Shown: piece by piece, positions 5,701-29,700 of the stretch
Numbering within the stretch: position 1 is the stretch's first letter
Layout: each line of letters begins with the position of its first letter
Assembly (NCBI GenBank): GCA_018824145.1
Contig: JAHJHC010000041.1
Span: 1-55,211, forward strand
Origin: Candidatus Omnitrophota bacterium
GTDB taxonomy: Bacteria > Omnitrophota > Gorgyraeia > Gorgyraeales > Gorgyraeaceae
Reading direction: 5' to 3'
Length of the DNA stretch: 55,211 nt
The notes under the pieces: generated by a model
The model's input: the letters and a program-made list of their open reading frames with translations, nothing else
What the model was told of the DNA's origin: nothing
The model's database searches: none
Position numbers and translations under genes: made by a program

Positions 5701-8700
5701 AGATATATTAAAGACCCATCCATTAATGCAACAATCATTAAAACAGCTTGTTGTACTGCAGGATAGAGATGCGAGAGAAATGGGAGAACCTCTTGCGCGG
5801 TCTGAAAGTTGTTATTTGGTGCATGATGATAATGGTAGAGCTATTGAGAGGTATGGGGCTATAGGAAGTAGGCGTATAGCTGCAAATAATAGAGATTCAG
5901 AACTCTTGGCAGAAGGATTGCCAGCGTCGGCCTATTCAGCTGGGTTAACATTAGTAACGAGTCCTGTGTTTAAGGAAATAGCATATAAAGTCTACCTGGA
6001 TTTTATTTGGTATGTAGCACAGGGCAACTATGATCCGAAATATGGTTTCGGAGATTCAATGGATTCAGACAGACGTTTAGCTAATCATCAGGCATGGCTT
6101 TTTATGGCGTTATTGCCGTATATTCTTGAAAATAGGAAAATAATTGATGATGCTTTTCTTAGTCACCCGTGGAATCGTGAAGGAGCAATTGCCCAGGGAG
6201 ATTTTGTAGTAGGCTTATTAAATGGCGATACTGACGGAAGGGCAAGGCTTGTAATGGATGCGATGAAAGAGTGTGGAGTTATAACAGCCGAAGGGCGCTA
6301 CACAGTACCTCAAGGTGGAGAGATCAGGGCTGTTCAGGGCGAACTTCAAAAGGCGCTTGTTAGTAAAGGGATAGAAGACTTAGATGCTGGAGAGGTAATA
6401 GCCTTTGTGTTAAAGAGAACTCAAGAGAAAAAAGGTAGGCTTGATGGGGAAGAAGGTTTACTTTATAGAGACCCTCGAGAATTGCCGTTATTGCTAGGTA
6501 GAAATGAGGATGGAAGTATTATGAGGGAATGGGGAGAGGTCAGACAACCCGGAGGTGTAGCTGAAACCTTAGCAGCTGTTAGTGGTTTCAGTACCTTAAG
6601 CCAGTTGCCGAATTTTCTTGGAGGAGCTCAGGATTTTCCTGACATTTCATCTAGCTGGCCGACTCTCCAGGGTTTCTTTGAACAGGCATCTGACTTGGTG
6701 AGGTTGAATCAGGAAGGGGTATTGGCAATACTAGCAGTGTTGCTGGCGGTTGTTATAGTAACAGGCATAGTAATAGCAGCATTAATTCTAATAACTCGGG
6801 TCCTTCATACTTATAGGACCCGGGAGACTGAAACCCAGTCGGTTTCACCTGAAGAAAGGATTCCTTCTGGTGTATCTCTTGAGTTAAGGGACGGATTTTT
6901 AAGATTTTTAAGAGAGACATTTATTGAAGGTGTACATGTAACAGCTGATCGTATATGGCAGGAAATGCCTGAAGATCTTAGAGGGAGTATTCCAGAAGAA
7001 ATGATGCTGGTTATTTTGCAAGACGTTTCTCGCTCAGGTGATATTTTAAGATTGACTATTGAGGGAGTAGAAGTTTATCTTTTGATGGACCTGGAGCGTG
7101 TTACAAGTGAAAGCTCGATCATTAAGAGAATATTGGGAACGCCTTTTTATACTGGCACAGGCGGAGGTATGGCTGATATTCTGAGAAGCGGCCACTGGAC
7201 ATTTTTACCTCTAAATGTACGCGGTCGTTATCTAAGAGAGTTATATGCAGGCCTCACGTTAAAGGAACAGGCAGTTGTAGACTTATTTATTGACGCATAT
7301 GTAAGTATGGCAAGGACATTGCCTGAGGGATTAAGGGACCAAGTGCCAGAAGAGTTAAGAGAAAGTTATACTGATGACTTTCTCGATGATTTTCTTTCAG
7401 AGGAAAATCTGGAAAGGCTATGGCAAAAGAGGTGCCGTATCTTATCAGAAGAGGATTATAGTCAAGCACCAATGGATAAAGAAAAGTTCAAACAAAGTTT
7501 TGCTGCTTTAATAGAAGATACAGATAAAGTTAAGACGTTGCTTTCCGCATTAAATAAGGGATTTGAGTCTCTGCGCCAGGACATGCCCAATGTAAAGACC
7601 TATAGAGAAAGGGATGGGTTGGTCCATGGTATAGAAGAGTCAATGTATGCGGCGATTTCTGATTTAGTGGATATACAGTATCCATCAGGTTCCCCGCGGC
7701 CTGATTCGTTACGTATACCTAATAGGGAAGATGATTTTTACGGCAGGATGTGTCGTTTCTATGCAGAGATATTTGCCATGGCTTACGAGCCTACTTATGT
7801 AGCTAAGCCGACTTTTGCTTTATACTGTGTAGCAGAAAGGCTGAGGCAGGAGATATTTGGTTTGGAAGATTTTTTTGAGATGGAAAAATACAGGGCGAAT
7901 TCGGCAGCGTTGGAAATATTCTCTGCATTTCATGATGAGTTAAAACCGTTCTCAGGATGGGATATTCCTGAAGATGTTCAGAGCTCTCCTTTAGGTGCGT
8001 ATAGAGAAAAACTTCCAGTAGTGCAAAAGCTCTGGGATAGATACGGAGCAGATTTGACTCTGAAACAGCCTGATTATTATATACGCAGGTTGGTGTGGAT
8101 GCATAGAAAATTGGAGAGGTTGTCTTTGCTTTGTGCAATAGCAAATGCTATGGATTTCGGTGACCCTAAGTTCCAGCAAGAGGCGCAAGAAGCAGGGTTT
8201 GATGAAAAGGCATGGATGGTAGATAAGATAGAGGAGGGGCTTGAAAAAGGCTTTTACGAGAGCGACATTGATGAATTTTTTGAGATCGTAGGCGCTGCCA
8301 AATTGGAATTTGAAAGAGTAAAAGAAAATAATGGTTGGTCTGATGATGATGAGAGGATTGATGACAGCAAACGGCCCAAGATAATCATATTGACTGACAA
8401 TGCAGGCGAGACAGTCTTGGTCATGTTACTGGTTGGATTTTTATTAGCACTTGGTTTTAATGTTGTTATTGCCAGCCGCGATGTACCTGTAATAAATGAT
8501 ATGACTCGAGAGGATAGCAAATCATTACTCGAAGAATTCAGAGAAAGAGGATATTTTAAGAAATACGGCGAAGAGCGGCTTAAGGTGATTTCGTCCGGTG
8601 CAGCTATGTTTGCCACTCCACCTGCTGACTTAAGCACAGAGTTTTTAAGAGAATATAATGATGAAAATACTGTCTGTGTCTTTGCCATGGGACAGGGTAA

Positions 8701-11700
8701 TATGGAAAGTCTATGGCAGGGCGAGTGGCGTGAAAAAGCATGTATACATTGTTTGACACTAAAAGACTCGTTAAAAGTATGGGGCCTTCAAAACATCCCT
8801 TCTCACTCACCATTGCTGCTGGTTAATCTGCCTATACGACCAGAAGATATAATAATGGCAGATAAAGAGGTTTCAGGTGAGACAGTTTGTCTGAAAGACC
8901 GGCCAGACCTTATAGCAGTTTTAAGAGCAAAAGGTGTAACTATTATGGGTGACGAAAATATTTATATTTATCCTGAAGAATTCCAGGGACCTTTAGTAGA
9001 AGGCATAGCAGATTGTTTTGAATCAAAAGGGATTGTTTTAGATGCCTCGACTGGCCTGATTTATTTAGGCCGATGTGCTATAGGAAAAGATACGCATATA
9101 GACGGAAGAGGTGGTGTAGTCATTAGACGAGGGACAGCAGTTGGCAGAGCTTGCCGTGTTGCAAATGCAGTACTGATTAATGCCGAGATTGGAGATGGAG
9201 AAAAAGTTCGAAGAAGAGTGATTATAGGTAGAGGCCCAGATGAAAAGCGTTTTCGTCGTGGACGATCCGGAGAAGTTATGTCCACTATGGGTCTTGCGAC
9301 AATAGGCCTGCAGCCACTTTCTGTCAATAAAACCCTTTATAATAAACTCGTAGCTAACGGCGTTAGGATAGAGGGGGAACTCAGCACTATTTATATTGCT
9401 GATGGAGTTGAAATAGCGCCGGGTACAGTAATACATTCACACGTTGTCTTATTAGGCCAGACTGTAGTTGGACGAAATGTGGTGCTTAATCCGCTTGTGT
9501 ACTTAGTTGATACACAGGTAGAGGAAGAATGTAAGTTATCAAGGGTTACGGCAGCAAATTGCAGATTCTATCCAAGAGTTAACATTGATGATATTCCGTT
9601 ATTGCGGGACGAGCAGGTTTATCCTTATGGGAGTGTCCCTGAAGGAAGAGAGATCATTGGTTTTGTTGTTGATCCTGCGTTAGAGAAAGGTGAAAAAGGC
9701 ATAATGGGGGTAAGATGTAGAGACCGGGCTGCTCTTTCACGTTTTAGTCTAATTAGTAGGAGGGCCAGGCATTTATCTTTTGGTGAGATTAAAAGAGCAG
9801 GTGAAGAAGCGAAGGTAATCGATATGTTATTAGAGCAGGCAAGGTTGGGTGTTTATGTGGCCAGTGACTTGTTGTTAAGGTTGAATAAAGATAGGCAATT
9901 TACTGATGAGTTTGGCGATAGAATTATGGAAACGATTGAAATGGTCGTTAAAGACCCGATGTTAGATGACTTTACTTTACATCAGGTTAAGGCATTTATT
10001 GGACAGATTATCTGGGTCTATGCAAAGTCACCCTTTCAACTGATAAAGAGAGAAGAAGATGAAAAGGTAATAGAGGTTGCAGAGGTTTTAATAGGTACTC
10101 TAGATAAAACTCAGGATGCCGGAAAGAGGTTAGAGCTAGCCATAAAGATATCTGCATTGTCCAATATCAGTATATTTGACAGGTTTATACCAGAGGATGC
10201 GGATGATGAACTGAGTTTTGCAGTAAGAAAATTCAGCTCAGTTGTTGCTTCTATACGTGAGGGCAAAATTACGGATGAACTATTAAATTTAATTGCAAGT
10301 AAGGCGTACATAGCCGTGGATGAGGCAGAGGATATCGTCGAGCGATTACTGGTAGTGCCAGAAGGGGAGAGACAAAATAAGACCGTAATCTTCAATATAA
10401 ATAATGCCGGAGAGGTCATCTATAATATGGTTTTAGTACGGGAGGTCTTAAGACTCGGCTACAAGGTAGTTATTTCAGCTAACGAGGGGCCAATCGACGA
10501 TAATTACGATGTAAGAGATTTGAGCGAATTACTCCAGCATCCGAAAGTAAGAGAAGAGAACTTTTTAGGAGAGTTTCTAACTGATGGCAGAATAAGGATG
10601 GTTTCTAACGGGTCAGTATCTCCAGGTCTGGATTTGAGTGATCTAAGCAGGGAGTTTCACGGGATAGCTACTGATAAAGATACTATAATGATGATATCTG
10701 TGGGCTATTCCTTGGCAAGAGATGCTCTCACAGAAAGCTTACCTTTGGATGCAGCATATCTATGTTGGGCAAAAGATCTTAAAGACCCCAGTGTTTTTCA
10801 AAGAGCAGGTCTAGAAATTAAGAGGGGCTGGGCAATGGCCAGTTTTGTAGGTAAAGGTGGACAGACTGCCCTGAGTAGAAAGTTGTCTTTGGAGATAAGG
10901 CATCTTGTCTCTCAGGTGTTCGGGCTTATTGGCTTATCAAGATTAGTGCGAGAAATAGCTGAAGGCCATAGTATTGAAAGCGTTGCAGGATTAGATTTAA
11001 AAGATAGCTTGGTCAAAGCGCTAACCTTTTTCGCTAAATCAGGAGTATATAGCCAGGAAGAGATAAGCAGCTTTTTAACGCCAAAACTTATTTTTATAGA
11101 AGGAGATGAAGCTATTGATGTTGCCTATAGAAGACAATTAGAGCAAAGAAAAGAACTTCTATTTAGAATTAGAGATTGGCATGCTGAGTTCAATAAGCTT
11201 ATAAATGGCTTAATTAGCATAGAAACATATCTAAATGGGTTGGCTCAGGACAGAAAGAAACCAGATCCTGAGACAGTAATCGCAGTTATCCAGAGAAGGT
11301 TAGGTTTGTCTGGATCTGAAGTCGCGGCCTTACAAAAACGTATTACACCTTCATTGCACAAAAGAAGATATGATGTTCTTCTTTATGAGATCTTAATATT
11401 TGTCTTCTCTAACAGATATCCACGTATGACAACAATAGTAAATTTGAGAGAAGTAATAGAGGAATTCAGGGTCTACGAGATTCCTTTGGCAGTTGCTCTA
11501 CCTTATCTCAGCCGCACGGTTTCTGCATTGGCCGTATCTGAAAGTGAGTTTGAGAGTATCTTACAAGAAGAAGATTATTTTGATAAAGTTTTTGCTGGAA
11601 AGCTCGACGCTGCGATATCTGGTGATAGTAGGGTGTCTTTACAGGAGAGGTTAGTATCGGCTAAAAGTTATGTTAGAAACCATATTGTTACTGATAGAAG

Positions 11701-14700
11701 CAGGAGTCCAAGAGAATATCATTTTGCAGTAAGGATGCTTTTTGTCGGCCTTCTTGGAGTTAAGAAAGCCCCTGTAGGGATAAAAGGAGTAGATAAAACT
11801 TTAGCTGATTTAATTACACCTGATGAGGTTAGTTGCTATTCGTTGGAAGAGCTCGGCGGTATTTTAGGTCTTGCCTTTAGGTCAGGTGCAAGTGTGACAA
11901 AATTAGAAGAGCGCATGGGGCTACCCCAGTATACAAAACTTACTCAGGGAATCGTAGCATTAGTCGATGATGTAAAATGGCTGGTAGTAGATCGTGTAAA
12001 GACGTTAACCGAAAAAGGCAGGCCAGCAATAGAGGCGTTTTTAAAAGATACGGCAGTACCAGTATATGGCCGTGCCATGTTTTTATTTGGCATTTTTAGA
12101 TTAGCGTCAGGTGAAGGATCAAGGTTGAGTGCCGAAAATTGGACTGATTGGGTTGAAAGTGGGATACTGGAAGATTGGGAATACGATTGTTTAAATGAAG
12201 GTTCAGAGATTTTAGCAGGAAGTGAGCGAGGTGATTTTAGTATAGACTCCTCTACTAGTTGGCACGCCTTTATGGCTAATGAGCAATATCCTGCTGAATA
12301 TAAGATAGTCTTATTGGAATGTGTAATTAAAGAAGCTGAAGGGAAAGAAGATACTCTTTTACATTTGGAAGCGCTCTGCACCATGTTAAAGATATATACG
12401 GATTCCCAAAATACAGTTAGTTTAGAACGGGTCAGCCAAGAGATTATTAGCCTTGTCTATGGATTGGATATAGAGAGGGTGCGCTCTTTATTACCCGGAA
12501 TGAGCGATGTTACAAGAAACAACACTATTTTAATAATAGAAAACCGCATGAGATTTTATGAACTTATGTTTAACCGGATGGGTAAGTGGCGTAGAAAAAT
12601 GCCGGTTTTAGCCGAATTCTTAAGACATGCCTTGTTACTAAGAGAAGCATATTTAAGCTTAGGTGGAGCAGGAATAGAAAAAGTTGATGGGGTAGTTGAT
12701 AGAGTAACAGAGGTACTTATAGAGCTGGATGAGACAAATTTAAAAGTTCTTTTTCAGCAAGATACATTTAAAGGAGAACCTGGGATAAAGATTATGCTGC
12801 TTTCGATACTTAGAGAAATAGACCTGGGCTTTCTCAATGGAGTGTTGATTAGCAGTACCCTGACAGGTGATATTAGGATTCCTCTTTTAACTGACCCGAG
12901 CCCAGAAGTTCGGGAGTTAGTTACAGAGATTCTTAGCCAGACAGATAGAGGTAGGCAAGCACTAGAGTCTATTGGGCAGGCTGAGGCTCCTAATTTCGAT
13001 GATGATGATGGGGCTATTGTTGAAGATAGAGCAGCAGGGGTCATGATGGGCGTGGGTGCCATTGGAGGAGTGCAGGATTTTCTTAGCCGGGGTGTGAAGG
13101 ATTTTATTGTGCAGGGACAGGACGTTTTTCCGGATATTTTATCTTTCAACTGGTGGATGTGGGTTGTTGGTTTTGGTGCGTTGTTTGTTGGATTTTTGAT
13201 TTTAAGGCCTTATTTACAGCAGCATAATTATAAGCTAGTCCCGGCAATTAGAGATTATCTTAGGGATATGATGGGGCAAAGACTACGTCTTGCTGGAATA
13301 TGGGGTGACGGAATAAAAACTATAAAGGCTGTTTTTATTGGGCCTGAAAAGAAAACGGTTTCTTCTACTGGTTTAGTAGGGATTACAGTGGCAGCAGTCT
13401 TATTAACCGCAGGCCTTGCCGGGCCTGTAGCGGTCGGGGCTTTAGGTCTTTTGGTGGCATTAGGCGTAGTTTCTGTAATATATTCACGCGCTCCGCCAAT
13501 TAGAAGATTCGCTTTGATTGGAATACCTCTCGTCTTTTTAGTCTTACCATTGTTTGCCGCACAGCCTGTCCTATCAGCACCATTATCTGATATTCCCTCT
13601 TCTTTGACCCAGATATCCTCATTGATGAATTTTGATTGGCCATCCTGGGGCAATAGGCTATTGAAAATAACATTGAAATTTTCCATAGTACTTATTGCAT
13701 TGCGCATCTATTGGGTTGTAGCACAACATTCGTTAGCTGTTTTACAGCGTTCGTCAAAGGTTGAAATACCTAAGCCACGGTATAGAGCAGATATTACAGT
13801 TACTGGCACACCCGGTTTCGAACATATAGATCCATTTGACGCAATGGTGCCGCTACCTCCTTCCTTTCCCGGGGAGAGCAGGTGGAGGGTGGAGGGAGAT
13901 GTACAAGAATTGTTGAATGAGACTGGGATACGGCTCGCTGGCGGACGACGAATAGTCTGGGGAATAGAGGTTAAAGCTCTTGTTGATCTGGCATTTAAGA
14001 GAAAGGGATTAGAGGCTCATCGAATCCGTATCAGGGGGTGGCAGGGAATTGGGCTTGTAATTGTGGTTATTAGGGGGTTATTGTTGGTTGGTGTTGGTGT
14101 GTTATTAGCTCTCGGAATCAAATGGGGATTTACCCAGATTGACCAGCTGTTACCTCTTGCCGGACAAGCAGGGATAAACACTCTGACTTTGGTGTCGCTA
14201 GGCAGTACAGTGTTGACGGCCTTACCCCTTGGAGTGGCAATGATGGCGGCTGAAGATGTAGAAAATACACGCCTGAAGGCACGAGCGGGAACAAGTAGAG
14301 GAGGAGCACCAGATAAGCATTCCAGCGGGCAGATGGCATGGGTAAAGGAATGGCTGGAAACACATGGAGTTGAGGTAACGCCGAATAAATGGTTAAAGAC
14401 CGAAGAAGATATTACTCTACTTGGGTTACTTGGAGTAGTCGCGGGCGTAGGGATTATTTTCGTGGCTAGTAATCTTTTCTCACTCGGCTTTTTAAGCGGA
14501 ATAACTGCTTTAGGCTTGCCATTGGCTTTAGTGATAGGAAGTATTTTGTATTTTCCATTTTCACGCTTCATAGCGTTTATAGGCGGTCACTTTTTTGACG
14601 GCTGGAGACATGGGTTAAAGAATATGGGTGCGGCAGCCAATATTAGTGCAGTGGGAGTAGCTATAGGATTTATTGTTAATGGTTTAATTTTAGGTGGAGT

Positions 14701-17700
14701 TGGCTTTATAGGTGCTCAATTTGTACCTGGTATTTTAGTTAGCGTACTTACCTCTCCTTTAGTAGCGCTCATATCAATTCCAGTGATTTTGGTCTTTTAT
14801 GTTTCTCTGCTAGTAACCCACCACAAGATGAATTACAGGGCCCTTTCTTTAGCTGAAAATTTAGCTAAAAAAAGAGATGCGCTTTTGGAAAAGCTTTTAG
14901 TCAAATATGACTTTCCAAAAATGGAGCAGGATACAAGGGTGGAGTTTAGGTCGGCTGAAAAAACGGCGGGTGAAATGAGCGAAAAAGAACTCGCCATCAA
15001 AAAAGAGATTGACTTAGCGATTGGAAAAGAGAGGCCATCGGTTCAAGATAGAAAAACCGCATGGTCAAATGTATTGGGAGAACAATTTGAAGATATAGTT
15101 CCTCTTAGCCTCTGCCAAAGGCTGGTTAATTGCTATTTTTCTGAGGATGAGAGGAACAATTATTTCGATGCCGGCGCATTAAGAGTAATTCAAAGAGAGA
15201 TACCGATATTTAGCATTGATTTTATTGCCATTCTCATCGCGAATTCGGGAAATCCTATCCAGGTATTGTTAAGCCTAAAAGACATGCTTGATGCATTAGA
15301 TAAGCAATCAGGGGTATTGGAAACTTATGTAAAGAGGATGGATTTAAGAGATATCTATAGGGACGCTAGCAGAGTTTTCTGGTCGGCACATGATAGGGGG
15401 AGTCAGATAGGAGATGAAGACGCATTAGACTTACTCCGTAAGAGGCGACCAACTCATCCGGCATTGATCAACTGGGCAAAATTAGTTTTGTATCGGGTAA
15501 GTGGTTCTGGTAAGAGAGGACAGGCCTTGATCGCGAACGCATTACTTTTGGGTGGCGTAGTAATAGGATTAGGCATGGCTGCGTATCTTACAGGGGTTGA
15601 TACGAATAGCCTGGTGCATATCGTCCAGGTAAGCAGTAATTTTCTTTTGAGGGCAGCGCCGTATCTGGCGGTAATTAGTAGTATTGGAGTGGCAGTGGTG
15701 GCGGCTGGACTGCAGAGGAAGGGATTAACAGCTGAGGACTATCCAGATATAGGGGTTTTGCAAGAAGGAGGTGTGCCAATAGATGAAGGATCAAATGGCA
15801 GAGGATATGGTAAAGGAACGGATGCATTACCTGGTTTGGAAAGCCATGCTCTTGCACTAATGCTTATAGAGGCACAGCGAGATTTGCAAAGGCAATTATC
15901 TGCTTTGACTAAGAGAGATGTTTTGATATTGAGGTGGATAGCTGAAGGATGGACTTATAAAGAAATAGGGATAAAACTATCCATTAGCCGAGGAACGATA
16001 GCAAACCGTGGGTCTCTAATTTTGCATAAATTGGGAGTTTTGAATCGCGCTGCAGCAGTAATAAAGGCAATAGAAAACGGTATAATGGAAAGACCAGAGA
16101 TTCACTATAATAGAGATAATATTAGAAGACTTATCCCAATGGAAGTAAGGGTACTGCCTTATCTGGCAAGAGGTATGACTAATTTAGAGATATCACAAGA
16201 ACTTGGAATTACGGAAGGGACAGTAAGTACCCGTGTAAGTTCTCTTATACAGAAACTTAAAGGGAGTGATGAGAATGAGTTTCGAGTCAAAATCGTGAAT
16301 AGGATTCAGGTAGCAATCGTCGCTCCTGAAGTGATAAAACTTTATGAGGAACAAGAGGAACAAGACGATGGGCTGCTTCCCTTGGAAATTGAAATTCTTA
16401 AGCTGTTAGTACAAGGCAAGACTAATCCAGAGATAGTAGAAAACTTACATATCACAGAAGGCAGAGTTAGAAAACGTATAACTGCAATTTTAAGAAAGCT
16501 TGGTGTAGGAAATCGTGTAGCAACAGCAATTGAGGCAGTTAAGATGGGATTGGTGGAGAGACCAGAAGAGATTTCCTATTGTGAAATCGGAGCTAAAGAA
16601 CTTACTCCAAGAGAATTAGATGTACTGTCTTGTCTGGCAAAAGGCTTGACCAATCCACAGATAGCGCAAAAACTTGGAATTGGTAGAGATACTCTCCGAA
16701 ATTATATTAGTTTTATCAGAAGTAAGCTAGGGTTGAATAAAAGAGTGTATGTAGCACTGGCTGCTCCGGAAGTGATAGAAAGTCTCCAGAGACCTCAAGG
16801 TAGGACTATCGGGATCCCTATACCTTCAACTGATGAAAGGCCCGGGGCTGTTAGTTTCGCTATTGCCATGGTAGGTGGTATTTTAAATCTAGTTATAAGA
16901 CCCTTCATAGATATGCGGAGAAATGTGATAGATATAGAACGTGAATATAGGGTAAAATCCGTTTTAGCTCAAGACCCTGCAAGCGTTCACTATTACGATG
17001 GCTTGGCAGAGAAAATGGCTTCTTATGGAGAATACTATTCAAGTATGATAAGGAAATGTTTCTTGATAGGGGCCTCAGTTTTTATATTGTTGGTTATTTT
17101 GGTAACACTTTGTGCCAATAGTTTAGCAGGGGTATCTCAACCTGTGCCTTTGCCTGTTTCGCTGTCTGGCTTAGGGTTAGGGTTGCCAGGATTAGTAGGC
17201 GCCATGGCTGTCTTATCTCCGGCTAGTTCATTGGAACCTATAGAACGAGTATCTTTTCTAGAGTTAGTTAATAGATATAGGAGTGCAAGAAAAGAAACGG
17301 TAGCTCTTCCTTCTTTAGAGGGTCTATCGAGAAAGGCAGGAATAGTACTCATTACCCGAAATCAATCCACCAGAAAACACATGATAGATCTCTTAGCTAA
17401 TAGCAAAATAAGTGGGATATCTGTTCTTGGATTATCCCAAGGAGATAATGGTAGCCTGTTTAAAATACGGCAAGCTATTGAGACGTGGATGAAACAAAGC
17501 AGATCTTCTCATCTCAGGATTATTGTTATAGACATGGACGGTACTGAAATGAAGGTATACTTTTTAGAATTTGGCAGGGATACAAATGTCCAATTGCAAA
17601 TTATATCTATGCGGCCTTTAGCTACTATGGCTGCTGGAATAGTATTTGGTGTTATTGGTGTTAAAGGAAAACTTGAGAGAGTAGATCGAAATTTACAAGG

Positions 17701-20700
17701 AATATCAAAAGGAATTCTTGAAATCGGGATTGAATTTATAGATATACTGATTTTACGATTGGTTGCAAAAAACTTATCCTATCCAGAGATAGCAAAAGCA
17801 TTATTTATCGAAAAGATAGAAGTTGGAAACCGTGTGCGTTTAATTGTAGATAAGCTAAAGGCCTCAGACTGCTGTCAAGCAGTGCTTATTGCAGTTAAGA
17901 AAGGGATAATAGAGAGACCAGCAATTGACTATTACAAAGATGGTGTTTGGGATCTTGATAAACCAGAGACAAAAGTGTTAGCTCTTTTGGGAAGAGGTTT
18001 AACCAATCAAGAGATAGCAGACAATTTGGGGGTTCAGGTACAAACTATACGCTTTTATATCTCTGGTATTTTAGGAAAACTTTTTCTGGAGAAGAGATTT
18101 CAAGCAGGACTGGTTGCTTCAGAAGTCTTAACTGTTCTGGGATTGCCTGCGACGTATCCCGATGAACCAGGATATGATGGAGGGAGCGGATTAGCCAATA
18201 GAAATATAAATGCAATGATTATGGCCGTGGGTGGCTCCAATCTGCTCGGCAAGATGCAGCCATTTAGCGAGGGGCTTACTAAACAATGGGTTCATGGGAT
18301 CCCTGACTTGGTAATCGTCTTGGGGGCACTGGCACTCGCTTTTGTGGCAGTTCGCATAGGCGTTTTACTCTGGCAGAGATGGATGCGGAAACGTGCCGGG
18401 CCGGAACACTCATTTATACCTGAATCTCACCTTATGATGCAGCCATCCCGCCTGTCCTCTCTTTGGGCATCTGTGGTTTCTTTGTTTAAAAAAATTAAGC
18501 AAGTAGTCGACGCTCAGCCAGTATACGCTATTTTTGTCAGTATTCTCGCTATTGAAGCAGGACTTGGTATTATTTCTATCCTGTCGGGTAATTTACCGCA
18601 TAACCAGGCTAATGCAATCAGTGATTTTCTCAAACCTGCCTTGCTCGGTGGCGGGATATGGCTATTTGCCTCGACACGAAAAATGAAGCCTAGGCAATAT
18701 ATTATCACAGAGTCAGGTGGGGAAAAAGTTAATGTTATGGACGCCATCTTTGAAGGCCAGTTTACTCCAGAGATGGCTGAAAGACTCAGTGAAGGATTGT
18801 TGCTTCTTCCGATTCGAGAAGTTGAGGAGAGAGACCATACTGATGTTGAATATGCAGAAATCATAAATAGGGCACTCGATAGTGTACAGCGATGGGCAAG
18901 GCAAGGCGACCTTGATGCTGAAATACCAGAAGAGGGGAAAGGGTGGGTTTTTTCATACGAGGTAACAAGTGAATCTGCGAAGAGAGTGCGTCTTCGCGAA
19001 GTGGTGGAAACATTTCACGAGACACTCGGTTGGAGTAGGTCTAAACTGCACTCGTATTTATTAACTGACAAAGATAATCAAAGAGCTTTAAGCGCCAAGA
19101 GGGTGGCAAGGTCAGGGGGAGAAGGAAGAGTATGGGAGTTGAACAGAGAACTTGTCAATGCGCTGGCTGTAAAGGAGAGTAGATTTGTCCCTGTTCAATA
19201 TGCTTTGGATGAGTTAAGAGAGAGAGATCTCTATGTGACTGAAACAGAGTTTTTATCTTTAGTAAAGGAGATTGGATTTGTCTATTTAAAAGATGCTTTG
19301 GTTAGGTTAAGAGAGAACCAGATCAAAGTGACTGCAGAAGAGGTTTTATCTTTAGTAGACATAAAAACGCAAGCAGTAACAGGTGAATGGGGAGTTGATA
19401 TAGTGCATTTTGCTGAGATTGTAAAGAGATTGAAAGAAAAGAGGCAGATTATTGGGCCGGTAGATGAAGGTGGAGATATTATAACAGAAGGGGATATAGA
19501 TGCATTGAAAATTCTTTTTATCTCTCTTTATGCGGAAGACCGTATTTTACTGATTGAAAAGATTAACCGGGCCATAGAAGATGGTAGTATCCCTGATAAT
19601 CTTTTAGGTCCAGGTGGGGGAATAACTGAGTTTTTAGACTGGGTAGTAGACCAATATCCTGAACATCCTGATAAGTTAGGATCTTTAGATCGAGAGATTC
19701 GAGCAGAAGCAAGATACGCATGGTCAGTAGCCTATAAGTTTGGATTGGAGGATATAGATCAAAAAATATATATTCTTACTCATATGATTAAAATAGCCAT
19801 ACTTATAGGCAACACGCCTCAGGTTGAAGCATTGAATCAGAGACTTGAAACGTTACGACGAGAAAAGGAATTGAGAGATAAAGAAGCAATAGTACCTTCA
19901 CTTTTACCATTAGTATCCATGCATAGCGCAAAAAGGGAACCTCGTGAGGATGAAGAACTGTATGAGGAACTGACCTTGGATGAATATGAACCTATTAGTT
20001 TGTTCGCTGGCCTTACGCTGGGTGGATTGACAAACATGTTTGGTACCGATATCTTCAATCGCACTGATTTTAAACTTGATTTTAATTTTGGTTTTGATTC
20101 CGGGTCTATTTTATCAGGACTGACGCAGTATGTGCCACAGCAGTTGGATCTTTCGGCTATCTGGCAGACTGTTAGTGAGTTTAAGAGCAGCTTAACTACT
20201 TTACACTGGGTTGGGATTGGGGTGTTGGGCTTGCTTGGCGTCACTATATTGATGTCTATCATTTCCCAAAAGCTTTCAGCATTCCTTAGACATCCGTCTA
20301 CTATCCGCACTTTATTTCTTACGGGCATTGGCCTTTTGTTATATTCCATGGTTCCTCCTTCAGCCAGAAATTTCTTCGTTGCTATACTGACAGGTTACTA
20401 TGTTCTCACGCTTGGATTGATATACCGCTATACTATCAAAGCGGTTCGTAATATGAATGCAGAGAAGGATGAACTACGTATAAAGATTAAGGTATTAAAT
20501 GAAATATGTGAGAATGTTTCTAAGGATGATAGACTAATAAGGAAATTATTGGGTAGCGTAGAAAATGCATTAAATACGGCATTTTTCTCATATACGGAAG
20601 AAGAAATAAAAGAAACGCTGAAGAAATCTAAACGAGCCATGCGTTTTCTCCCATGGAGTTTATGGCTGGCAATACCTGCAATGCTATTCCTTATCGAGCC

Positions 20701-23700
20701 TATTGTCCCATATATTATTGACTTTAGCGCTTTTCTATATAGTTTTACACTTACCAATATTCAGCCATTTATTGCATCCATAGGCGTTCTTACATTTCTA
20801 TTGTCTTGTGTTGCGATTTTTTATCGAATCGGGAAAATATTATTTGGTCCCGATGCGGCATCAAAGAAATTTGACCGGTGCACGACTGTTTTGAGACGGG
20901 TCAGTCGAGTTACGTTTTTGCTTGTAGTTCCCGCCCTATCTTTAATTACGGCGTTTGTTATATTGATTCTATGGTTTGCTCCAGAATTTCTTACTGTACC
21001 AGTAAGTTCTCTCCTTATGATGTTGCTGGAAAGATTGGCTTTGATAGGTATAAACAGCCCTACCTTGATGTCGCTGGGCAGTACAGTGTTGACTGCCTTA
21101 CCCATAGGAGTGGCAATGGTTGTAGGAGATAGGGCTTTCACTGAAGATACGTCTGGAGCGGATGGTAGTAGAGTGGCGCCTGGCTCGACGGATTCTGCTT
21201 ACGATCCATTAGTGGCTACAGGGTATTTAGCTGCAAAGCTTACTCAAGAAGAGCGACTGGTATTTATTGGACTCCTTCGTGGATGGGTTGATGAACGACT
21301 TAAAGAAGAAATAGGTCTGGAATATACAACGTTGAGCCTCATATTAGGTACCCTCAACAATAAGCTTCTTTGGGAAGGTGGTTCACCACGGGAGAAGCTC
21401 ACCAAAGCAGGTATTTTAGGAATGGTAAAATCACCTTTGGAAACCAAGGAACAAGAAATACTCGAGGGATTCCTGCGTGGATTAAGGTATGAAGAAATAG
21501 CCAGAACGTATTACATAGCACTAAAATCGATAAGTTACTACGCTTCTGGTATAAGAGGGAAAATTCGACTAGAAAGAGAAACTGAATCCGAACATAAAAT
21601 GACAATTTTAAAGCTATTTTTAGCACGCGGGGTAATACCATCCAGGGGCATATATTGCAAGGTCACTGTTGAAATTCATCGCTGGCTCATTGAACATGGG
21701 TTTCTTGTATATCCTTTGAGGCCGGCTAGAGAGCAGCAAGGAAGTGATGTCCTGACTGCTGGGAAGCCACCTTTGAGTGCCATGGAGGCGCTTGTTCTTT
21801 ATTGGACTGTGCATGGGATATTATCCGATGGTGAAATGGCTGCGAGGTATGGAGTGAGTGAGGACAATATAAGTGTTTACCGTGCTACATGTAAGGAAAA
21901 AGTGTTTCCATTTCATCAAGGTTCGTTAAGGAGTAAACTCAGGCAGAATGGTCTACTGGAAGAAGGTGAAGCTGCTCAACGATTATTAGGTTTTAGTCTT
22001 CCTCCAGCGGTCCACAGGCAATTGTATTCGGGTCAATTAAGGATTCTTGAGGTCTTGAATCAGAGTCCACATCTTTCCAGAGAAGCCCTATCTAGATTGA
22101 CGGGGTTAGAACCTAATAGTGTAAGAACATATATATTTGGATTGTGCAAAGTTTTTGGGGTACCAAAGGGGCTTGTGCCTACTAAACGGAGAGATGCCCT
22201 CGTTCCTGCTGTATTTGGATTAGCAGATAGGAATATTTCTTCGACTAGAGATTCTGAAATAAAAGCATCTACAAGAAGAAGAACTGGTGCTAAAGAATAT
22301 GATGATGATTTCATAAGAAGAAAAACAAACGCAATGATTATGGCTTTGGGTGGCTCCAGTGTGCTCAATCAGGTACAGCCATTTGCTGAGGAGGCTACTA
22401 AACAATGGGTTCAGGGAATCCCTAACTTGGCAATCGTATTAGGGGCGCTGGCACTTGCTGTTGGTGTTGTTTGGCTGGTCAAAAATCTCCTCGACGACTA
22501 TACGAATCTTTGGCTGCCAGAGAAGATAGTGACTTTGAACGTAGAGATTCCTGTCGAGGTGGATGGTAAGATGCAATGGGTGGAGAAGAAAAGGAAGTAT
22601 GAATTAGTCAGACAGGTTGAACAAAGTGGATTTGCTGCCCAGGTTTGGGAGGCAAGGGTAGAGGGTACTGAGGAGAGAGTAGCCTTAAAGGTATTTCGAC
22701 CAATTGGCAAAAATGGAAAGATTCATAGGCAAAGTCGCATGTTGGCATTTCAGGATGCTAGGCCAAGCAGGGAAGAGGCTCAGATGGCAGTTTCTATGCG
22801 AAAGATTGCAGGTATTCTTACAAAATATCCTGAAATATACGAGCTTATGCTTGAGGAAGCAAGCGCGATTTATGGAGGAGAAAATAATGACGTAATGGGA
22901 AAACTGCAAGAGTTAAGAGATGGGATTGGGCCATCTCTTGTAACGCAGGCTAATGCTTATGGTTGGTCAGATGCACATAATGCATCATTCCTTGAATTAG
23001 AATGGGAAGATAATGTGAATACTGCACGGTATGGTTATTTTTCAGGCCTGCTTGATGAGGATATGCGTCTTCAAGCTCTCTTTATGCGTGCTTTTTGCAG
23101 GTTGCTTGAGAATATTGGTGCAGAGGGGTATATACCTCAGACTTATATAGGTAAGACTTTATTTGGTACATCTGAGCCAATAGGTATAAAGTATCAATTA
23201 GGCATAACAGCAGCAATGTTGGTTTCTTTAGCTACATTTTTCCTTACAAATTCTTGGCCTGTAACATTATTGCTTTCTGTCACAGTTCTTTTTGTCCTTG
23301 GTCATTCTGTCGGTGGTTCGTTTTTCTCCTGGGATAACATTTTCTGGAGTGGAAAACGAGGAATCGGTTTAAAGACTCTTGACCTTGAGCCAGGACTTCC
23401 GCGCGGTGGACCATTAGGTGGTATCCTTTGGCCAACATTTGTCCCGAGACTCTCTATTGCAGGTTTAGTAGTTTTGGCATCATTTTTTAGTGGGATTCCA
23501 TTTTATGTGGCTGGGTGTTGTGCCTTAGTCTTTTTGATTGTTACTTCGCCTGGATGGTTATTTCCTTTTGAGTTTGGTGCTGTAAGTAAAATGAAGAAGG
23601 CAGGTTTTGGTCCTAATTTAGGGGCGATGGATGTTGATGCTGCAGAGAGACATATCTCGGGTAATTATCAGGTTGCAGGAAATTATGATATTGATGAAGA

Positions 23701-26700
23701 AAAAATAAGCATGCCGCTTAGAGATTATCGTGAACTATTCTGGCACCTTGACCAATATAGAGAAGCACAAGAAGCTAATTCACGACGTCAGATTAATATC
23801 TGGAGTTATGGCTTAGATTTTATCCGTGACCAGGCACGTCGGGAAGCTATACGCGAGTTCAATATACAATACTGGCTGGATGAAGGTAGGATTTCCAGTA
23901 GCATGGCTACTTATCTGCAAAGTTGTCCTGCTCCAATATATTTCTTATATTGGTGTGAGAGTCATATACCTATAGTAGGCCGTGTGGTTGGCAATAGAGA
24001 CTATCGAGCTTCAATGCGTCGTTTATTTACTGACAGCGATTTCTTTAAAGAACGCTGGCATGCTTACCGTCAGGCAAAACTTGATAAGATGCATGCCCAA
24101 GGTAGGCTAGGAAAATCTTTATATAATAGCCTTTACCCAGTACTAGAAGTCAATGAATGGGTTGAATGGCCGAATAACCGCCAGTTTATCTTAAATGTAG
24201 CGCTTAGTTACTGTACTCCAAGCCCTATCCATCACTTTTTAGTTGACAGAACGTATCGGCAGGAGGCAGTGGATAAGTTCACCAGCCAAGTTTCTATTAT
24301 GGTAGGTCCTGTTGTAGGAATAGGGCTTTCGTTATTGATATGGCCGCTACTTCCTTCCAGGGAATTCTTTTGGGCACTGGTGGTTTCAGTTATTGGGAGT
24401 GTCGTTGGAGCAGTAGTTAGTATGAGATTTTCAGATATGAAGTTCTTAACGGAACGTTCTGAAGAGGCTGAAGAAGATTTCAAAGATTGGGTCAAGGAAG
24501 GAGCAGAACAGTATAGGATTACTGAATCTTGGCAGGAGAAATTATTGGGGTTACGGAATGAAAAAGTTATTCGTGATTATATTAAGATATATGGTGTGCA
24601 GTTAGCATCTAAACTTGTCGTCTGGTTATTGCGGATAATTTTAATGGGTAGCATATTTGTAATTACCGGTGAATTCAATGTTCTTTCTGGACTCTGGGCC
24701 TTTGCGATACCTAGTGCTATTTGGAGGACTGTTACTACTTTAATTGTTATACAAGATTATAGTTGGTGGGGCCGTTTGAGGTGTTTTTCTGTTGCTTTAC
24801 TATTTGGTATTCTTCCTATACCTGGATTAACGTATCTTACAATGCCTTTTCAGATGCTGGTTGGTCTTATATTTTTCCCAGAGCGTGACAAGTTGGCCTT
24901 CCTACTTATCTTTGAATGGGAGTCTTTGATCGAAAAAGCCTGGGGTAAAGTGCCTGGTTGGGGCAGGACGACCTTAGCGCTATATTATTGGAACCTATAT
25001 TTGGCCAGGATACCAATTATGTTTATTAAGAAGGTCTTTCGTAGAGATAAAAGTAAAGAAGTTGAATTAACGTATCCTAGTATTATTAGGGCAGATAGCA
25101 ATACACCAATTTTGACCCACCACATCACACCCGGAGAATTATATGTAACTTCTATAGCTACACTTATCCTTGGTCTTGTTCCATTTGTCTTAAAGGCTGC
25201 GTGTGGATGGGATGTCCCTGATATAGTTCCGTACGTAGCGCTGGTTTTGGGATTAGGGTTGTCAGGGTTTTTGGTGAGTTTGGCACGATCTATTCGTCGT
25301 ACACTTGATAATTTACCGAATACTGAGATACGTGCCGGGCCTATTGATATCTTGCTTAAGAAAAAATCAGAACAAGCAGAGCTTATTCCTCAATTCACTC
25401 AATCTGACCTTGTAAGACATGATGCAAAAGACCACATCGCCTACTATAGTCCAAAAGACAAAGCTATCCACATTAACCCTAAAGCACTTGCCCAATACAG
25501 AAACTCCATCCAACACCTAATCTGGATAAAGGAAAGAACCCAGCAGGGATTAAGATTACCTAGAGCTTTAAATGAGATTATATCTTATACATGGATGGTT
25601 TTATGTATTGTGCCGGTAGTGTTATACCATGGTGTATATCTGAGTATTTATTTTTCAATAATAGCAAGAAGAGAGGCACGACGTGAACGTGAACGTGAGG
25701 AAAAATTGATGGGCCGGCTTGATGAAGCTTTTGATGCCCTTTATAGTCACACACCTGTTATTGAAGGAAGGCAAACAAAGAGCGTTAAACATGCGAAAAG
25801 CTCTCTTCGTCGGTTAGTAGATAATAAGTGGAAAGGAGGAGATGCTGATAAGGTGTTAAGTTCTGAGCAACTTAATGAGCTTGAGAGAATGGCTTTTCTA
25901 ATAGAGAGATTTCGTACGTATAACGAGTCAAGATTCTTTAGAGGAAAGACCCCAATTATTTTAAATTTTGAAGAAGCAAGACTATTAGCTTTGATTGCAT
26001 GGTATCCTGAAGAAGATTTGAATATATCAGGCTTAGCTGAGAAGTTCGGTGAACCAAAGGACACAGTGGTGGGAATGGTTCGTGTTCTGAATAGGTATTT
26101 TGGTATTGAGGATTTGGCACGCAGAGTAGAGTTAAAGGAATTAAGAAAAAAATTACGAATGAATCTTGGTATAAGAGGTGAAGCACTAATTATTGGACAT
26201 GGGGTCTTGCCTAGTGAACTACCACAGACAGTAGCGGAAATTGACCCAGGATTCGGCGAATTAGCACGGATCTTCTCGGTGAAGCTCAGAGCACATCGAG
26301 AAGCAGGGATTGATCGGCCTTTTATAGTAATGGTGAAAGGAGCAGGTGGGGTAGGCAAGACGACATTGATTCGTGTAATGAAAGAACGTCTGGAAGAGAC
26401 TGGATTACAAGTCGCTGCACCAGATAAGGTGGCGAGTTGGGATATATTAGGTTACCGACCGTGGCCTAGCTATCAGTACATAGAAGAACAACATAGAGAT
26501 GCTGATGTAATATTATGTGAAGCCACAGATGTGTTACCACCAGCAGGTGATTACGTTGAATTTTTAGATTTGTTTGTTGAAGTTAGATCAGAAAGATCTG
26601 TCCGGAGAAAGAGAATGAGAGCTATGGGAGTTTCTGAACCAGAGACAGAACGGATAGTGAATTCTCGAGTAGCAGCTAATTATGAAGACCATCCGCCCGA

Positions 26701-29700
26701 TGTTGTCATTGTCAACGAGAAACCGGATAAGACATGGTTTAGAGCGGAAGAAATAGACAAGTTGATTGGAGACAATGTAAAATTCATTACGTCTATCCAA
26801 AGCCAGGGTGAAGTATCAGGAATATCTCAAGATACATTCTTACCTTTGGCTCAAAAGCTTCTGAAAGAACCAGCGGATAGAGTAGAAAAATTACAAGCTC
26901 TACTAAATACTGAGTTCCAAACCCTGATCAATCAACTTTCTGAGAGATTAGGCAGTGAACGGGCAATATGGCATATCTTGATGCGTTGGAACCAGACAGC
27001 AAGATTAGAAGGGGCAAAAGAGCTATCTGTTATTTTAGCTGGCAAGTGGTACCAAGAATTGGCAGCTATGGTAGCGGAGATCGAGTCGTTAAAAGCTAAA
27101 AGGATGCAAGTAGAAGGGGGCGATGTCAAAGGTGTTACAGGCTTACGGACTAGAACAGAAGATGAACACCACTTTATGATGTGGTCAGAAGATCCTGACC
27201 GTAATGGCACTAGTCCACATAAGGCAGAAGAATTCAGGTTTGACCCTGGAGATGTGCATATAGGAGATACAAACTATACATTTAGGAAAGAGCGGGGACC
27301 TACCTTTGAAGGTTTTCCAGAAACATCATCTAAAGATCGAAGATACCTTAACCGTTATTTGAAGAATTTGATTAAAGAGGTTAAAGCAGGTAGGCCTGTG
27401 CTTGTAGTTGTTTCTCCCCAGACAGCTGAGCAGATGAGAGAGTGGGCCAAAATTGGCTGGCTTAAACGAAGAGTAGAGCTACTTCTACAGGATGCCATTA
27501 TCGTAGAAAAGGAACTTCACTATGACTCTGTAACTGAATATTACACTGAGGCACAGAAAAGACTTGCCGCGAATAGTGGTCAGTCTGATAAACCTCCTTT
27601 AGTGGTAGGTATTGGTATGGGTACGGTTTGTGACTGGTCGAAAGTCATCGGTCATAAACTCGGAGTCAATGTTCATCTTATTGTGACTGCGACTTCAACG
27701 AATGCACCTTTTACTCCTAATATACTAATACGTGACGGGTCGGGAGATGATTTCCGGCAGTTTAGTTATATGACAGGTGCAGCTGAACAAGTCATTGCTG
27801 ATGCATCTTTAATGAGACTTAACCCGAGAGGTAATATTGCAGGGGCTGGGGATTTATTCAGTGGTTGGGTAGCGTTGCTCGATTGGATGTTAGCGGTTCA
27901 TCTTGGCGTTACTGAGATGACTGAGGAGGAGCGAGCTATATTTGAAGAAGCCCATGTAGTGTTAGAAGATTTGAGCTCTCTTGCTACTATCATTAAGGAT
28001 AATACTCCTAAAGGCATTGAAGAATCAGCGAGACTTGCTATGCGAATATCAGCGCTTATGAGCCGTGCGAGAAATGCAAGGCCAAAGGCTGGAAGCGATC
28101 ACTGCGTTGCCTACAGTATGGAGGTTCAGACACAGGGTAGAAAAATGCTTCATGGAGAGCAGGTTGGCATCTCAACTCTATTAATGCTTGCACTGTATCA
28201 TATTGATAAGGAAAACCTTGAAAGCGGAGATTTTCCCGTAGATCAACTTAACGAGCAATTTTTACAAGAACGAGGCCCATCTGCTATTGATGACCTTAAG
28301 GTATTCTTTGAGAGACTAGAAGAAAGACCTGAACTGTTTCCAAGTCTTGATGAAGCGCGAGACATGGTTCGAGATTTAGGACTTCCTGTATCACTGGGCG
28401 CCCTGGCTTTGGTGGATGGAGAGGAGGGTATGAGTGTTATTGAAGCCGTTGAATCTTTAGTTAAAACCCAGCTTGACGATCGTCGGTTCACTTATCTAAA
28501 CGTCTTTAAGATTACCGAAGAAAAAACTATCAGGGCTGTCGCAATGGTTCTAGGCTTGACACCTGAGGAGGTCTTAGCCAGACAGACAGATGAATTACTA
28601 TCAACCAGTGTACCAGAGGAAATTCCAGCTCCTTATAGAGACATACCTGATGCCTCTGATATTCCAGGATCCATTGATGATATTGCCAATAGAATAATCA
28701 GTGAATGCAGAGAAGGTAACTACGATTCATTGCATCTTGATTGGTCTAAGAAGATGTTCTTTTACCAGGAGTTTATAAAAGAGGCTGCAGCAATAAATAC
28801 TGCCATTAAGAGAATTATAGCATTTCCAGCAGAAGAACAAAGTCAATTTGCTAACTTCTCGGGTTTTCTTGAGGCTGCCATTGCAGCAAGACTTGATATG
28901 ATTAAGCGTTATCAAGCACCATTATCTACCAAAGGAGAGAATGCCGTAAGGTTACTTGAAAAGGCTGTACAGACAGAATCTATGGATCAGTATGTTAATG
29001 CTTATAGCACTCGTACTGAACTGCTCGGAGATGTATTAAAAACAGTTATGCTTCCTCCTGCTATGTGGTTTGTGCCTTTATTGGAAGGGGAAAGGAAGAA
29101 GATATATGAAGATAATATAAGGCAGAAAGAAGTAAAAGTAGCTGAAATAAGAAGAGAACAGAGTAGAGTTGTAGCTACGGATGGATGTTCTAGTCAATGC
29201 GACCACTGTGACATGGCAGCCACCTTTAGGGTTGTTTCTATGCCGTGGATATGGCTTGAACAGGCAAAAGATGAAGTAGGAGCACCAGAGGTTATGACCT
29301 ACAGGAATGACTTTTTTGTAGATTATTACGATATTATTTATGATACAGATGCGAGTGATGTTGTAGATTTATTTAATCCAGAAACTATATTTTCTGCTGT
29401 ATTTGTACCAGGTTCTGTAACGGATAGAGCTTTAGGGAGATTATTAGGGTCAGGAGAGGGGAAGAGAACATTTGTTTTAAGCGTTGCGCCGAGTGCTTGG
29501 ATGCGTAAAGTTGGCGTAGAGAAGTATTGTGAATATGCAGTGGCGATTAGAAATAGAATTACCGAATATAACGATATACAAAGAGGAGATAGGCCTAGAG
29601 TTACTTTCGCTTGTTGGTTGTTTTTATTTCAACGTAAAGACGAACCGGATTTGATTGATACTATAAGAACCTATATCTATCAAGGCATGAAATCTGAGGA

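Follow-up and report, generated by a model that had tools for sequence, protein, structure and literature searches.

What might a membrane protein of more than 10,000 residues do with some ten DNA-binding helix-turn-helix (HTH) units of the LuxR/GerE type? The question is raised by contig JAHJHC010000041.1 of a Candidatus Omnitrophota bacterium (assembly GCA_018824145.1), whose entire length of 55,211 bp constitutes the window analyzed here, and in which three arrays of such units together with one further isolated unit all fall within a single open reading frame (ORF):

47..30556, forward strand: the giant ORF, encoding 10,169 amino acids (aa) that form a mosaic of hydrophobic helices and soluble domains.

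Within that ORF, nucleotide (nt) positions convert to residues as aa = (nt-47)/3+1. The frame is free of stop codons from nt 2 to the ATG at 47, and since the window is the whole contig the gene may begin beyond the contig's end; the protein is thus possibly truncated at its 5' side, so that 10,169 aa represents a lower bound. In size and topology the product resembles the Omnitrophota-type giants, being a single ORF of >10,000 aa with numerous transmembrane (TM) helices: a Kyte–Doolittle scan gave 51-68 hydrophobic helices, depending on the threshold. The protein as a whole is acidic (isoelectric point, pI, 5.9; net charge -112).

To establish what the units are, we scanned them individually with the Pfam model GerE (PF00196; cut-off 23.5 bits) and aligned them by hhalign with an independent profile made from 48 units that belong to tandem-GerE proteins of other organisms, the giant itself being excluded. 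The units are listed below with their GerE scores, their hhalign probabilities, and, where informative, the AlphaFold2 (AF2) model and its predicted local distance difference test (pLDDT):

15890..16099, forward strand: U1 (aa 5282-5351), array 1, A-type; GerE 46.1 bits; hhalign 99.2; a four-helix unit in AF2.
16106..16330, forward strand: U2 (aa 5354-5428), array 1, with an insertion ahead of helix 4; GerE 40.8 bits; hhalign 98.4.
16358..16573, forward strand: U3 (aa 5438-5509), array 1, A-type; GerE 42.5 bits; hhalign 99.2.
16595..16798, forward strand: U4 (aa 5517-5584), array 1; GerE 53.9 bits; phmmer match to the DosR C-terminal domain, E = 1.8e-8.
17729..17914, forward strand: U5 (aa 5895-5956), array 2, A-type; GerE 23.0 bits, just below the cut-off; hhalign 97.8.
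17951..18148, forward strand: U6 (aa 5969-6034), array 2; GerE 38.6 bits; hhalign 98.6.
21230..21424, forward strand: U7 (aa 7062-7126), array 3, weak and divergent; no Pfam match; hhalign 72.3; four helices in AF2, pLDDT 50-74.
21425..21646, forward strand: U8 (aa 7127-7200), array 3; GerE 25.5 bits; hhalign 95.8.
21764..21976, forward strand: U9 (aa 7240-7310), array 3, divergent; GerE 21.8 bits, below the cut-off; hhalign 84.1; three helices in AF2, pLDDT 76-93, biased by the alignment.
21998..22213, forward strand: U10 (aa 7318-7389), array 3, a divergent HTH; no GerE match, HTH_24 20.7 bits; hhalign 93.7; three helices in AF2, pLDDT 81-95.
25937..26128, forward strand: U11 (aa 8631-8694), isolated and weak, upstream of the P-loop domain; no Pfam match; hhalign 71.5.

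The Pfam scan thus bore out the expectation of GerE domains in six units (U1-U4, U6 and U8), with two more (U5 and U9) just under the cut-off, and over the array region the model collected 226.6 bits in total from seven stretches. Per-unit E-values were as low as 1e-14, on which account chance or low-complexity similarity is rejected. With the independent profile U1-U6 reached 97.8-99.2, and all 11 units exceeded every control, the highest value among 100 random soluble 75-aa windows of the same protein being 26.5. When the profile was slid along all 10,169 aa, matches with a probability of >= 40 appeared only at aa 5282, 5354, 5438, 5517, 5902, 5969, 7062, 7127, 7240, 7318 and 8631—the last, U11, being the sole match outside the three arrays—so that the first-pass annotation, which had read about ten units in arrays of four, two and four plus an isolated one from the letters alone, was recovered exactly and with no extras. 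The region's sequence matches in the PDB were to DosR, DesR, GerE, LiaR and NarL.

The fold itself was clear in array 1, whose AF2 model (13-row alignment; pLDDT 87.1) contained four four-helix units that in Foldseek superposed on the DNA-binding domains of DegU, GerE, LiaR, NarL and DosR with a root-mean-square deviation of 0.8-1.4 Å and a target template-modelling score of 0.81-0.90. For array 3 structure prediction was only suggestive: the model was poorer (pLDDT 62), with the three-helix cores of U8, U9 and U10 confident but biased by the GerE alignment and that of U7 low, and its Foldseek matches were generic HTH regulators. The units retain the family pattern [ST]-x-x-[TS]-[VIL]-x-x-[RYH], and in the recognition helix U4 aligns R-N with a K-N of DosR that we take to be the base-contacting K182/N183; arrays 1 and 3 are, furthermore, basic islands (pI 9.4) within the acidic protein. 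The Pfam, profile and fold comparisons confirm the units as genuine LuxR/GerE-type HTH domains, among which we grade seven as solid, two as probable (U9 and U10), and two as weak but above all controls (U7 and U11).

The units are not arranged at random. In a chunked self-BLAST, U1U2 matched U3U4 with 38% identity over 126 aa and U5U6 with 41% over 102 aa, and U6 matched U8 with 35% over 51 aa. The odd ones are plainly of the A-type, their classical helix 4 leading into G-[IL]-x-E-R-P, and this is also evident from their scores on an A-model versus a B-model (63.2/29.6 for U1, 59.2/38.2 for U3 and 36.7/18.2 for U5); the even units are less distinct, scoring about equally on both. The comparisons show the apparent building block of the repeats to be a two-unit A-B cassette, by which reckoning array 1 is an A-B-A-B, array 2 an A-B, and array 3 a decayed A-B-A-B. 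The three good didomains of the giant match one another best, at 82-85 bits versus 44-61 bits for the didomains of other organisms, and, these cassettes being mutual closest relatives, they have evidently been amplified by duplication inside the giant gene.

Around the arrays lie membrane helices and short repeated modules:

14171..14254, forward strand: LGST helix, copy 1 (aa 4709-4736).
15524..15712, forward strand: TM hairpin, aa 5160-5178 and 5204-5222, before array 1; H = 2.13 and 1.95 in the Kyte–Doolittle scan, with flanking K+R counts of 4 / 0 / 1 / 2.
16841..16897, forward strand: hydrophobic segment after array 1 (aa 5599-5617), H19 = 1.93.
18200..18364, forward strand: NAMIMA...QPF...KQWV.GIP module plus a strong TM helix, after array 2 (aa 6052-6106).
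21047..21130, forward strand: LGST helix, copy 2 (aa 7001-7028), immediately ahead of array 3.
22319..22480, forward strand: NAMIMA module plus TM helix, after array 3 (aa 7425-7478); in AF2 a long helix, a turn and a TM helix, at low confidence.

Hydrophobic helices stand on either side of each array, at aa 5204 and 5599 for array 1, 5852 and 6088 for array 2, and 7008 and 7460 for array 3, in keeping with the earlier claim that TM segments bracket the arrays of a polytopic protein; the helix at 5852 is weak. Self-BLAST likewise substantiated both duplications that had been noticed by eye: the LGST copies share 71% aa and 79% nt identity (ratio of nonsynonymous to synonymous substitution, dN/dS, ~0.25), and the NAMIMA modules (aa 6052-6098 vs 7425-7471) 70% aa and 81% nt identity (dN/dS ~0.5), which brackets are conserved far better than the HTH units between them. 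The degenerate NAMIMA copy claimed after array 1 did not hold up, no third copy being detected there by a hidden Markov model of the two good ones, though the segment is hydrophobic. A third duplicated pre-membrane module was seen elsewhere in the gene, at 4109-4261 (aa 1355-1405) and 20090-20275 (aa 6682-6743), with 34% identity and a strong TM helix next to it, from which the gene appears to reuse several short bracket modules beside membrane helices.

Regarding the relatives of the arrays, there were 5,612 matches to aa 5250-6449 in an exhaustive HMMER search; all of them run through the GerE stretches only, and we examined the 150 best representatives. Every one of these holds 2 to 21 tandem GerE units. 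The premise that a LuxR/GerE HTH occurs once per protein therefore stands as the norm—the usual PF00196 form being one C-terminal copy on a soluble dimerising regulator—but not as a rule; the giant departs from that form with its 10-11 internal copies flanked by membrane helices, while the sequence signature and the four-helix fold of the LuxR/FixJ/NarL-type domains (GerE, NarL, DosR, LiaR, DegU) are common to the array 1 units. The parts of the protein other than the HTH units yielded no homologue: a word-indexed protein search with aa 4701-7500 gave a single match, based on GerE, and one with array 1 likewise a single match; GTDB genomes gave only one weak GerE match, in Gaiellaceae, and the JGI metagenomes none, whether the query was the entire region or a degenerate NAMIMA pattern.

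The 150 representatives fall into three groups. The first consists of soluble proteins from uncultured bacteria that are small (150-750 aa, many of 300-350 aa), low to moderate in G+C, and furnished with 2-7 units; their named sources are Patescibacteria (P0012) and Levybacteria (P0032), and others are P0026, P0052, P0089 and P0009, the last with 7 units. Proteins of this group with four units align with array 1 end to end in the A-B-A-B register, at 24-31% identity across all four units, and in many matches the in-register alignment spans query residues ~35-323. The four-unit register, the linker lengths and the unit boundaries are therefore common to both, whereas the small proteins differ in being soluble, with no hydrophobic helix or signal peptide, and in lying in ordinary chromosomal contexts. 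Two of the free-standing genes, L003 8001-9911 (7 units) and L005 5001-6533 (5 units), are orthologues directly upstream of grpE on related contigs, which slot is usually occupied by hrcA, and a four-unit gene (L006 5001-5960) lies between the genes for iron superoxide dismutase and rubrerythrin; these contexts hint at a role of free-standing poly-GerE proteins in stress regulons. To our knowledge such proteins are uncharacterised.

The second group comprises giant 'LuxR C-terminal-related' proteins of 2.8-7.8 thousand aa from Nocardia, Mycolicibacterium and Mycobacterium, which carry several arrays with up to 21 units (4-21 tandem units in P0003 and P0022 of Nocardia and P0002 of Mycolicibacterium). 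In the two that we scanned, P0003 and P0022, the N-terminus is a WXG100-like domain, which resemblance suggests that they may be type VII secretion substrates; P0003 also has a HATPase domain. These Mycobacteriales proteins and the present giant have in common several separate tandem GerE arrays in one huge polypeptide, only the GerE units being homologous; they differ in having 0-2 hydrophobic helices, a high G+C and, in the two scanned, the WXG100-like N-terminus, no counterpart of which was found in the present protein, whose ORF is open at the 5' end of the contig. In the third group stands a Candidatus Omnitrophota fragment (P0159) of 3,609 aa that fills a 10.8-kb contig, and in which a TM helix and, beyond it, enzyme domains come after 5-6 GerE units. 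It is the closest architecture to that of the window's giant; a GerE array precedes a TM helix in both, and outside the GerE units the fragment (P0159/P0065) has no similarity to the giant.

Giants of Omnitrophota have been described as polytopic mosaics of >10 thousand aa that combine numerous TM helices with enzyme and regulatory domains of cytoplasmic type (West-Roberts et al., 2023, bioRxiv 10.1101/2023.11.21.568195; 2026 preprint 10.64898/2026.06.07.730766). Most of them possess a divergent SecA_DEAD helicase domain; in the present protein the SecA family had no Pfam match at E <= 0.1 over the whole ORF. What it does possess, besides the arrays, is the following:

2726..2914, forward strand: DnaJ J-domain (aa 894-956), Pfam DnaJ 85.5 bits, a cytoplasmic marker.
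7778..8734, forward strand: ARMT1/DUF89-like phosphatase domain (aa 2578-2896), Pfam 125.2 bits.
26297..26434, forward strand: P-loop NTPase motif region (aa 8751-8796), with a visible GAGGVGKTT and a weak Pfam AAA_16 match of 19.6 bits.

The J-domain follows the N-terminal 890 aa, which form a cluster of hydrophobic helices, and weak Pfam matches to hexapeptide repeats and to iron-containing alcohol dehydrogenase (Fe-ADH) complete the inventory, the latter with a glycerol-dehydrogenase-like PDB match near aa 9180-9270 (window ~27360-27860). The soluble segments adjoining the arrays (aa 5723-5890, 6180-6720 and 7480-8083) gave only chance-level PDB sequence matches.

With these elements, we propose that the arrays would serve as cytoplasm-facing, membrane-tethered platforms for multivalent DNA binding, regulatory or organisational in purpose, a reading to which we assign a probability of about 0.45. 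As to DNA binding, the basic charge of arrays 1 and 3 and the R-N of U4 speak for it indirectly. In LuxR-type regulators such as GerE, NarL and DosR two domains dimerise via helix 4 and read two half-sites. An A-B pair might be the covalent counterpart of such a dimer, placed on two adjacent half-sites, and an A-B-A-B block would then read four; if the arrays lie on the cytoplasmic face, up to ten domains held by the flanking helices could bind DNA at the membrane with high avidity. Selected sites of the chromosome, or the regulon of the protein itself, would thereby be pinned to that membrane, where the pinned DNA might be regulated or organised beside the fused J-domain and the phosphatase-like, NTPase and dehydrogenase-like modules. 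A DNA-binding domain held at the inner membrane is a concept that the giant would have in common with ToxR, CadC and TcpP, each of which has a lone OmpR-type winged helix, one TM helix and a sensor domain in the periplasm; the giant differs in its many GerE-type units and its polytopic nature.

Several observations weigh against this proposal. The base-contact positions vary between the units; array 3 and U11 look decayed, judging from their Pfam scores; the AF2 model of array 1 has a predicted template-modelling score of 0.54; and no orthologue of the giant protein that would reveal constraint on helix 3 was found in the protein, GTDB and JGI searches. The remaining ones concern the side of the membrane, which decides the function of the arrays. 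We approached this with a crude dynamic programme that takes Kyte–Doolittle peaks as optional helices and counts K+R in the short loops and flanks, and in nearly every setting that model put all three arrays outside, the all-outside arrangement beating the all-inside one across the parameter grid with a margin of 9-29 score units. The strongest driver of this placement is the very positive loop after the TM helix at 6088 (QRWMRKRAG...FKKIK; 8 K/R vs 3 D/E in aa 6107-6160), by virtue of which the segment before that helix should be outside unless NAMIMA crosses. If the arrays are inside, NAMIMA must indeed cross, hairpinned with the strong helix that follows, and an inside model thus requires a weakly hydrophobic segment (H13 = 1.4) to span the membrane.

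Topology, on which the first-pass annotation had made its inference depend, accordingly gives a divided answer, for other arguments point inside. In the same model the J-domain was inside in 5/5 settings and the P-loop/Fe-ADH region in 4/5, but the ARMT1 domain was outside in 4/5, which implausible location of an enzyme domain makes the model unreliable; it also skips the helix at 5204 and gives the homologous LGST helices opposite orientations. The hairpin of aa 5160 and 5204 has positive charges at both outer ends, which would place the start of array 1 inside; copy 1 of the LGST helix runs from out to in, according to the topology model, and if copy 2 is oriented alike, array 3 should be inside as well. 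The uncharged stretch in which NAMIMA lies runs to ~20 residues (with a single Lys in the copy after array 2); its N side is positive and its C side acidic, and this charge pattern reads as that of a marginal in-to-out helix, of which only 13 residues are apolar. The TM helix of the related Omnitrophota fragment has a K/R-rich flank on the array side, and the stand-alone relatives, without hydrophobic helices and in ordinary contexts, are as would be expected of cytoplasmic regulators. Taking both sides together, we consider it reasonably likely that the arrays are cytoplasmic.

Should they be extracytoplasmic instead—in the periplasm or on the surface—their target would be extracellular or prey DNA, to be captured or taken up, or else another ligand, and they would not act on the cell's own transcription. 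That alternative, the one that survives best, we judge unlikely. It draws on the outside placement of arrays 1-3, in which the J-domain and P-loop controls came out inside, on the positive loop of aa 6107-6160, and on the two giant Nocardia poly-GerE proteins, whose WXG100-like domain implies that such arrays may occur in exported giants; it is opposed by the model's failure with the ARMT1-type domain and with the two helices just mentioned, and by the want of a signal peptide or TM helix in the stand-alone relatives. We know, moreover, of no extracytoplasmic LuxR-type HTH. Most domains of Omnitrophota giant proteins have been predicted to be extracellular, predictions that the same authors themselves call unreliable (West-Roberts et al., bioRxiv 10.1101/2023.11.21.568195).

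A related and rather unlikely proposal is that the arrays constitute a new device for coupling membrane and DNA, in which up to ten HTH domains held by the conserved LGST and NAMIMA modules would fasten DNA, either the cell's own chromosome on the inside, where the protein would be an organiser or regulator of the nucleoid anchored in the membrane, or foreign or prey DNA captured at the surface if the loops are outside; it is the joint presence of a WXG100-like domain and GerE arrays in the Nocardia giants that makes the surface version conceivable.

If, as a further and quite doubtful alternative, the units had lost DNA binding, they might act as protein-protein modules of the sigma region 4 kind or as helical spacers, or be no more than decaying relics of captured regulator genes. 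The units do also match Pfam models of sigma-70 region 4; U11 and most of array 3 fall below the Pfam threshold (U8, at 25.5 bits, being above it), four units (U6, U7, U9 and U11) have a non-basic pI of 6.1-6.5, and the variable base-contact positions fit such a loss. U1-U4 and U6, on the other hand, score 39-54 bits, on a par with working regulators, and keep the family's structural signature and basic charge, and the three good cassettes have been maintained since an ancient duplication, retaining only 37-41% identity.

The arrays might, alternatively, be stored in a precursor from which proteolytic cleavage in or close to the membrane modules on either side would free soluble A-B-A-B regulators to act as ordinary transcription factors. 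Consistent with this, array 1 and the free-standing four-unit proteins of 300-350 aa align over their full length, the highly conserved LGST and NAMIMA brackets could be processing or recognition sites, and it has already been proposed that giant proteins are cut into smaller polypeptides (bioRxiv 10.1101/2023.11.21.568195); but no peptidase domain was found in the giant ORF by Pfam at E <= 0.1. The scheme is pure inference, no cleavage motif being known, and we hold it to be improbable.

Finally, that assembly or gene calling fused separate genes into the giant ORF is scarcely credible and is rejected, for, whereas the full-length protein is absent from a large protein database and an independent Logan assembly (SRR2544004) breaks within the ORF, a stop-free run of 30.5 kb at 40% G+C is impossible by chance, the G+C (~40%) and GC skew are even along the ORF, its internal repeats are diverged and not collapsed, and the independent contig agrees with the 3' end, its own 5' end opening with a 142-residue ORF fragment and the neighbouring gene product being identical.

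Some further observations pertain to other parts of the giant ORF. The cluster of hydrophobic helices directly before the J-domain numbers ~17; an in-frame tandem repeat with a 33-nt unit x3.5 occupies 3061-3175 (~aa 1005-1043), and in the ARMT1 region self-BLAST revealed a short internal repeat at aa 3452-3521 (window ~10400-10610). Between arrays 2 and 3, the acidic loop of 540 aa contains another in-frame tandem repeat, at 19169-19357, with a 93-nt unit x2 (31-aa units, aa 6375-6437). A motif (RVALKVFRP) reminiscent of a protein-kinase N-lobe can be discerned at 22550-22750 (aa ~7509-7566), just past the TM helix next after array 3; its sole support is a chance-level PDB match to casein kinase II, E = 0.18. 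Scans with Rfam and for terminators returned nothing relevant.

Downstream of the giant ORF, 14 genes on the same strand (30721-55025) form a sugar-utilisation locus unrelated to it, with a sugar ATP-binding cassette (ABC) transporter, a ROK protein, glycoside hydrolases (GH) of families GH42, GH94 (two), GH57 and GH99 (two), an outer-membrane beta-barrel, a histidine kinase with tetratricopeptide repeats together with an OmpR-type response regulator, and an FG-GAP protein of 1,268 aa. The outer-membrane beta-barrel indicates a diderm bacterium. For the neighbouring GH94 the best relative is 62% identical and the named matches, from mixed phyla, 41-44%, distances by which the organism would seem to be deeply novel.

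GerE-type domains and giant polytopic mosaics are thus already known, and tandem GerE arrays are present in databases, where they appear unstudied: neither of the two Omnitrophota preprints (10.1101/2023.11.21.568195 and 10.64898/2026.06.07.730766) mentions GerE or LuxR domains, and the literature searched yielded no account of GerE/LuxR HTH domains in tandem or in multiple copies, nor of WXG100-like, HTH-rich giants of Nocardia. The tandem arrays are therefore not unique to this protein; what is new is the threading of three of them between the membrane helices of a protein of at least 10 thousand aa.

Arrays of 2-21 tandem GerE units recur in small Patescibacteria-like proteins, in giant proteins of Mycobacteriales and in giant genes of Omnitrophota. 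The present case is clearly odd and experimentally tractable. If its arrays were extracytoplasmic, they would overturn the assumption that this fold acts only on the cell's own DNA. If they bind DNA, a multivalent LuxR-type binder would be built into a polytopic membrane protein, and a single polypeptide would directly join membrane and chromosome to a series of fused enzymes; in which event the giant protein would offer a testable handle on the role of giant mosaic genes in uncultured bacteria.

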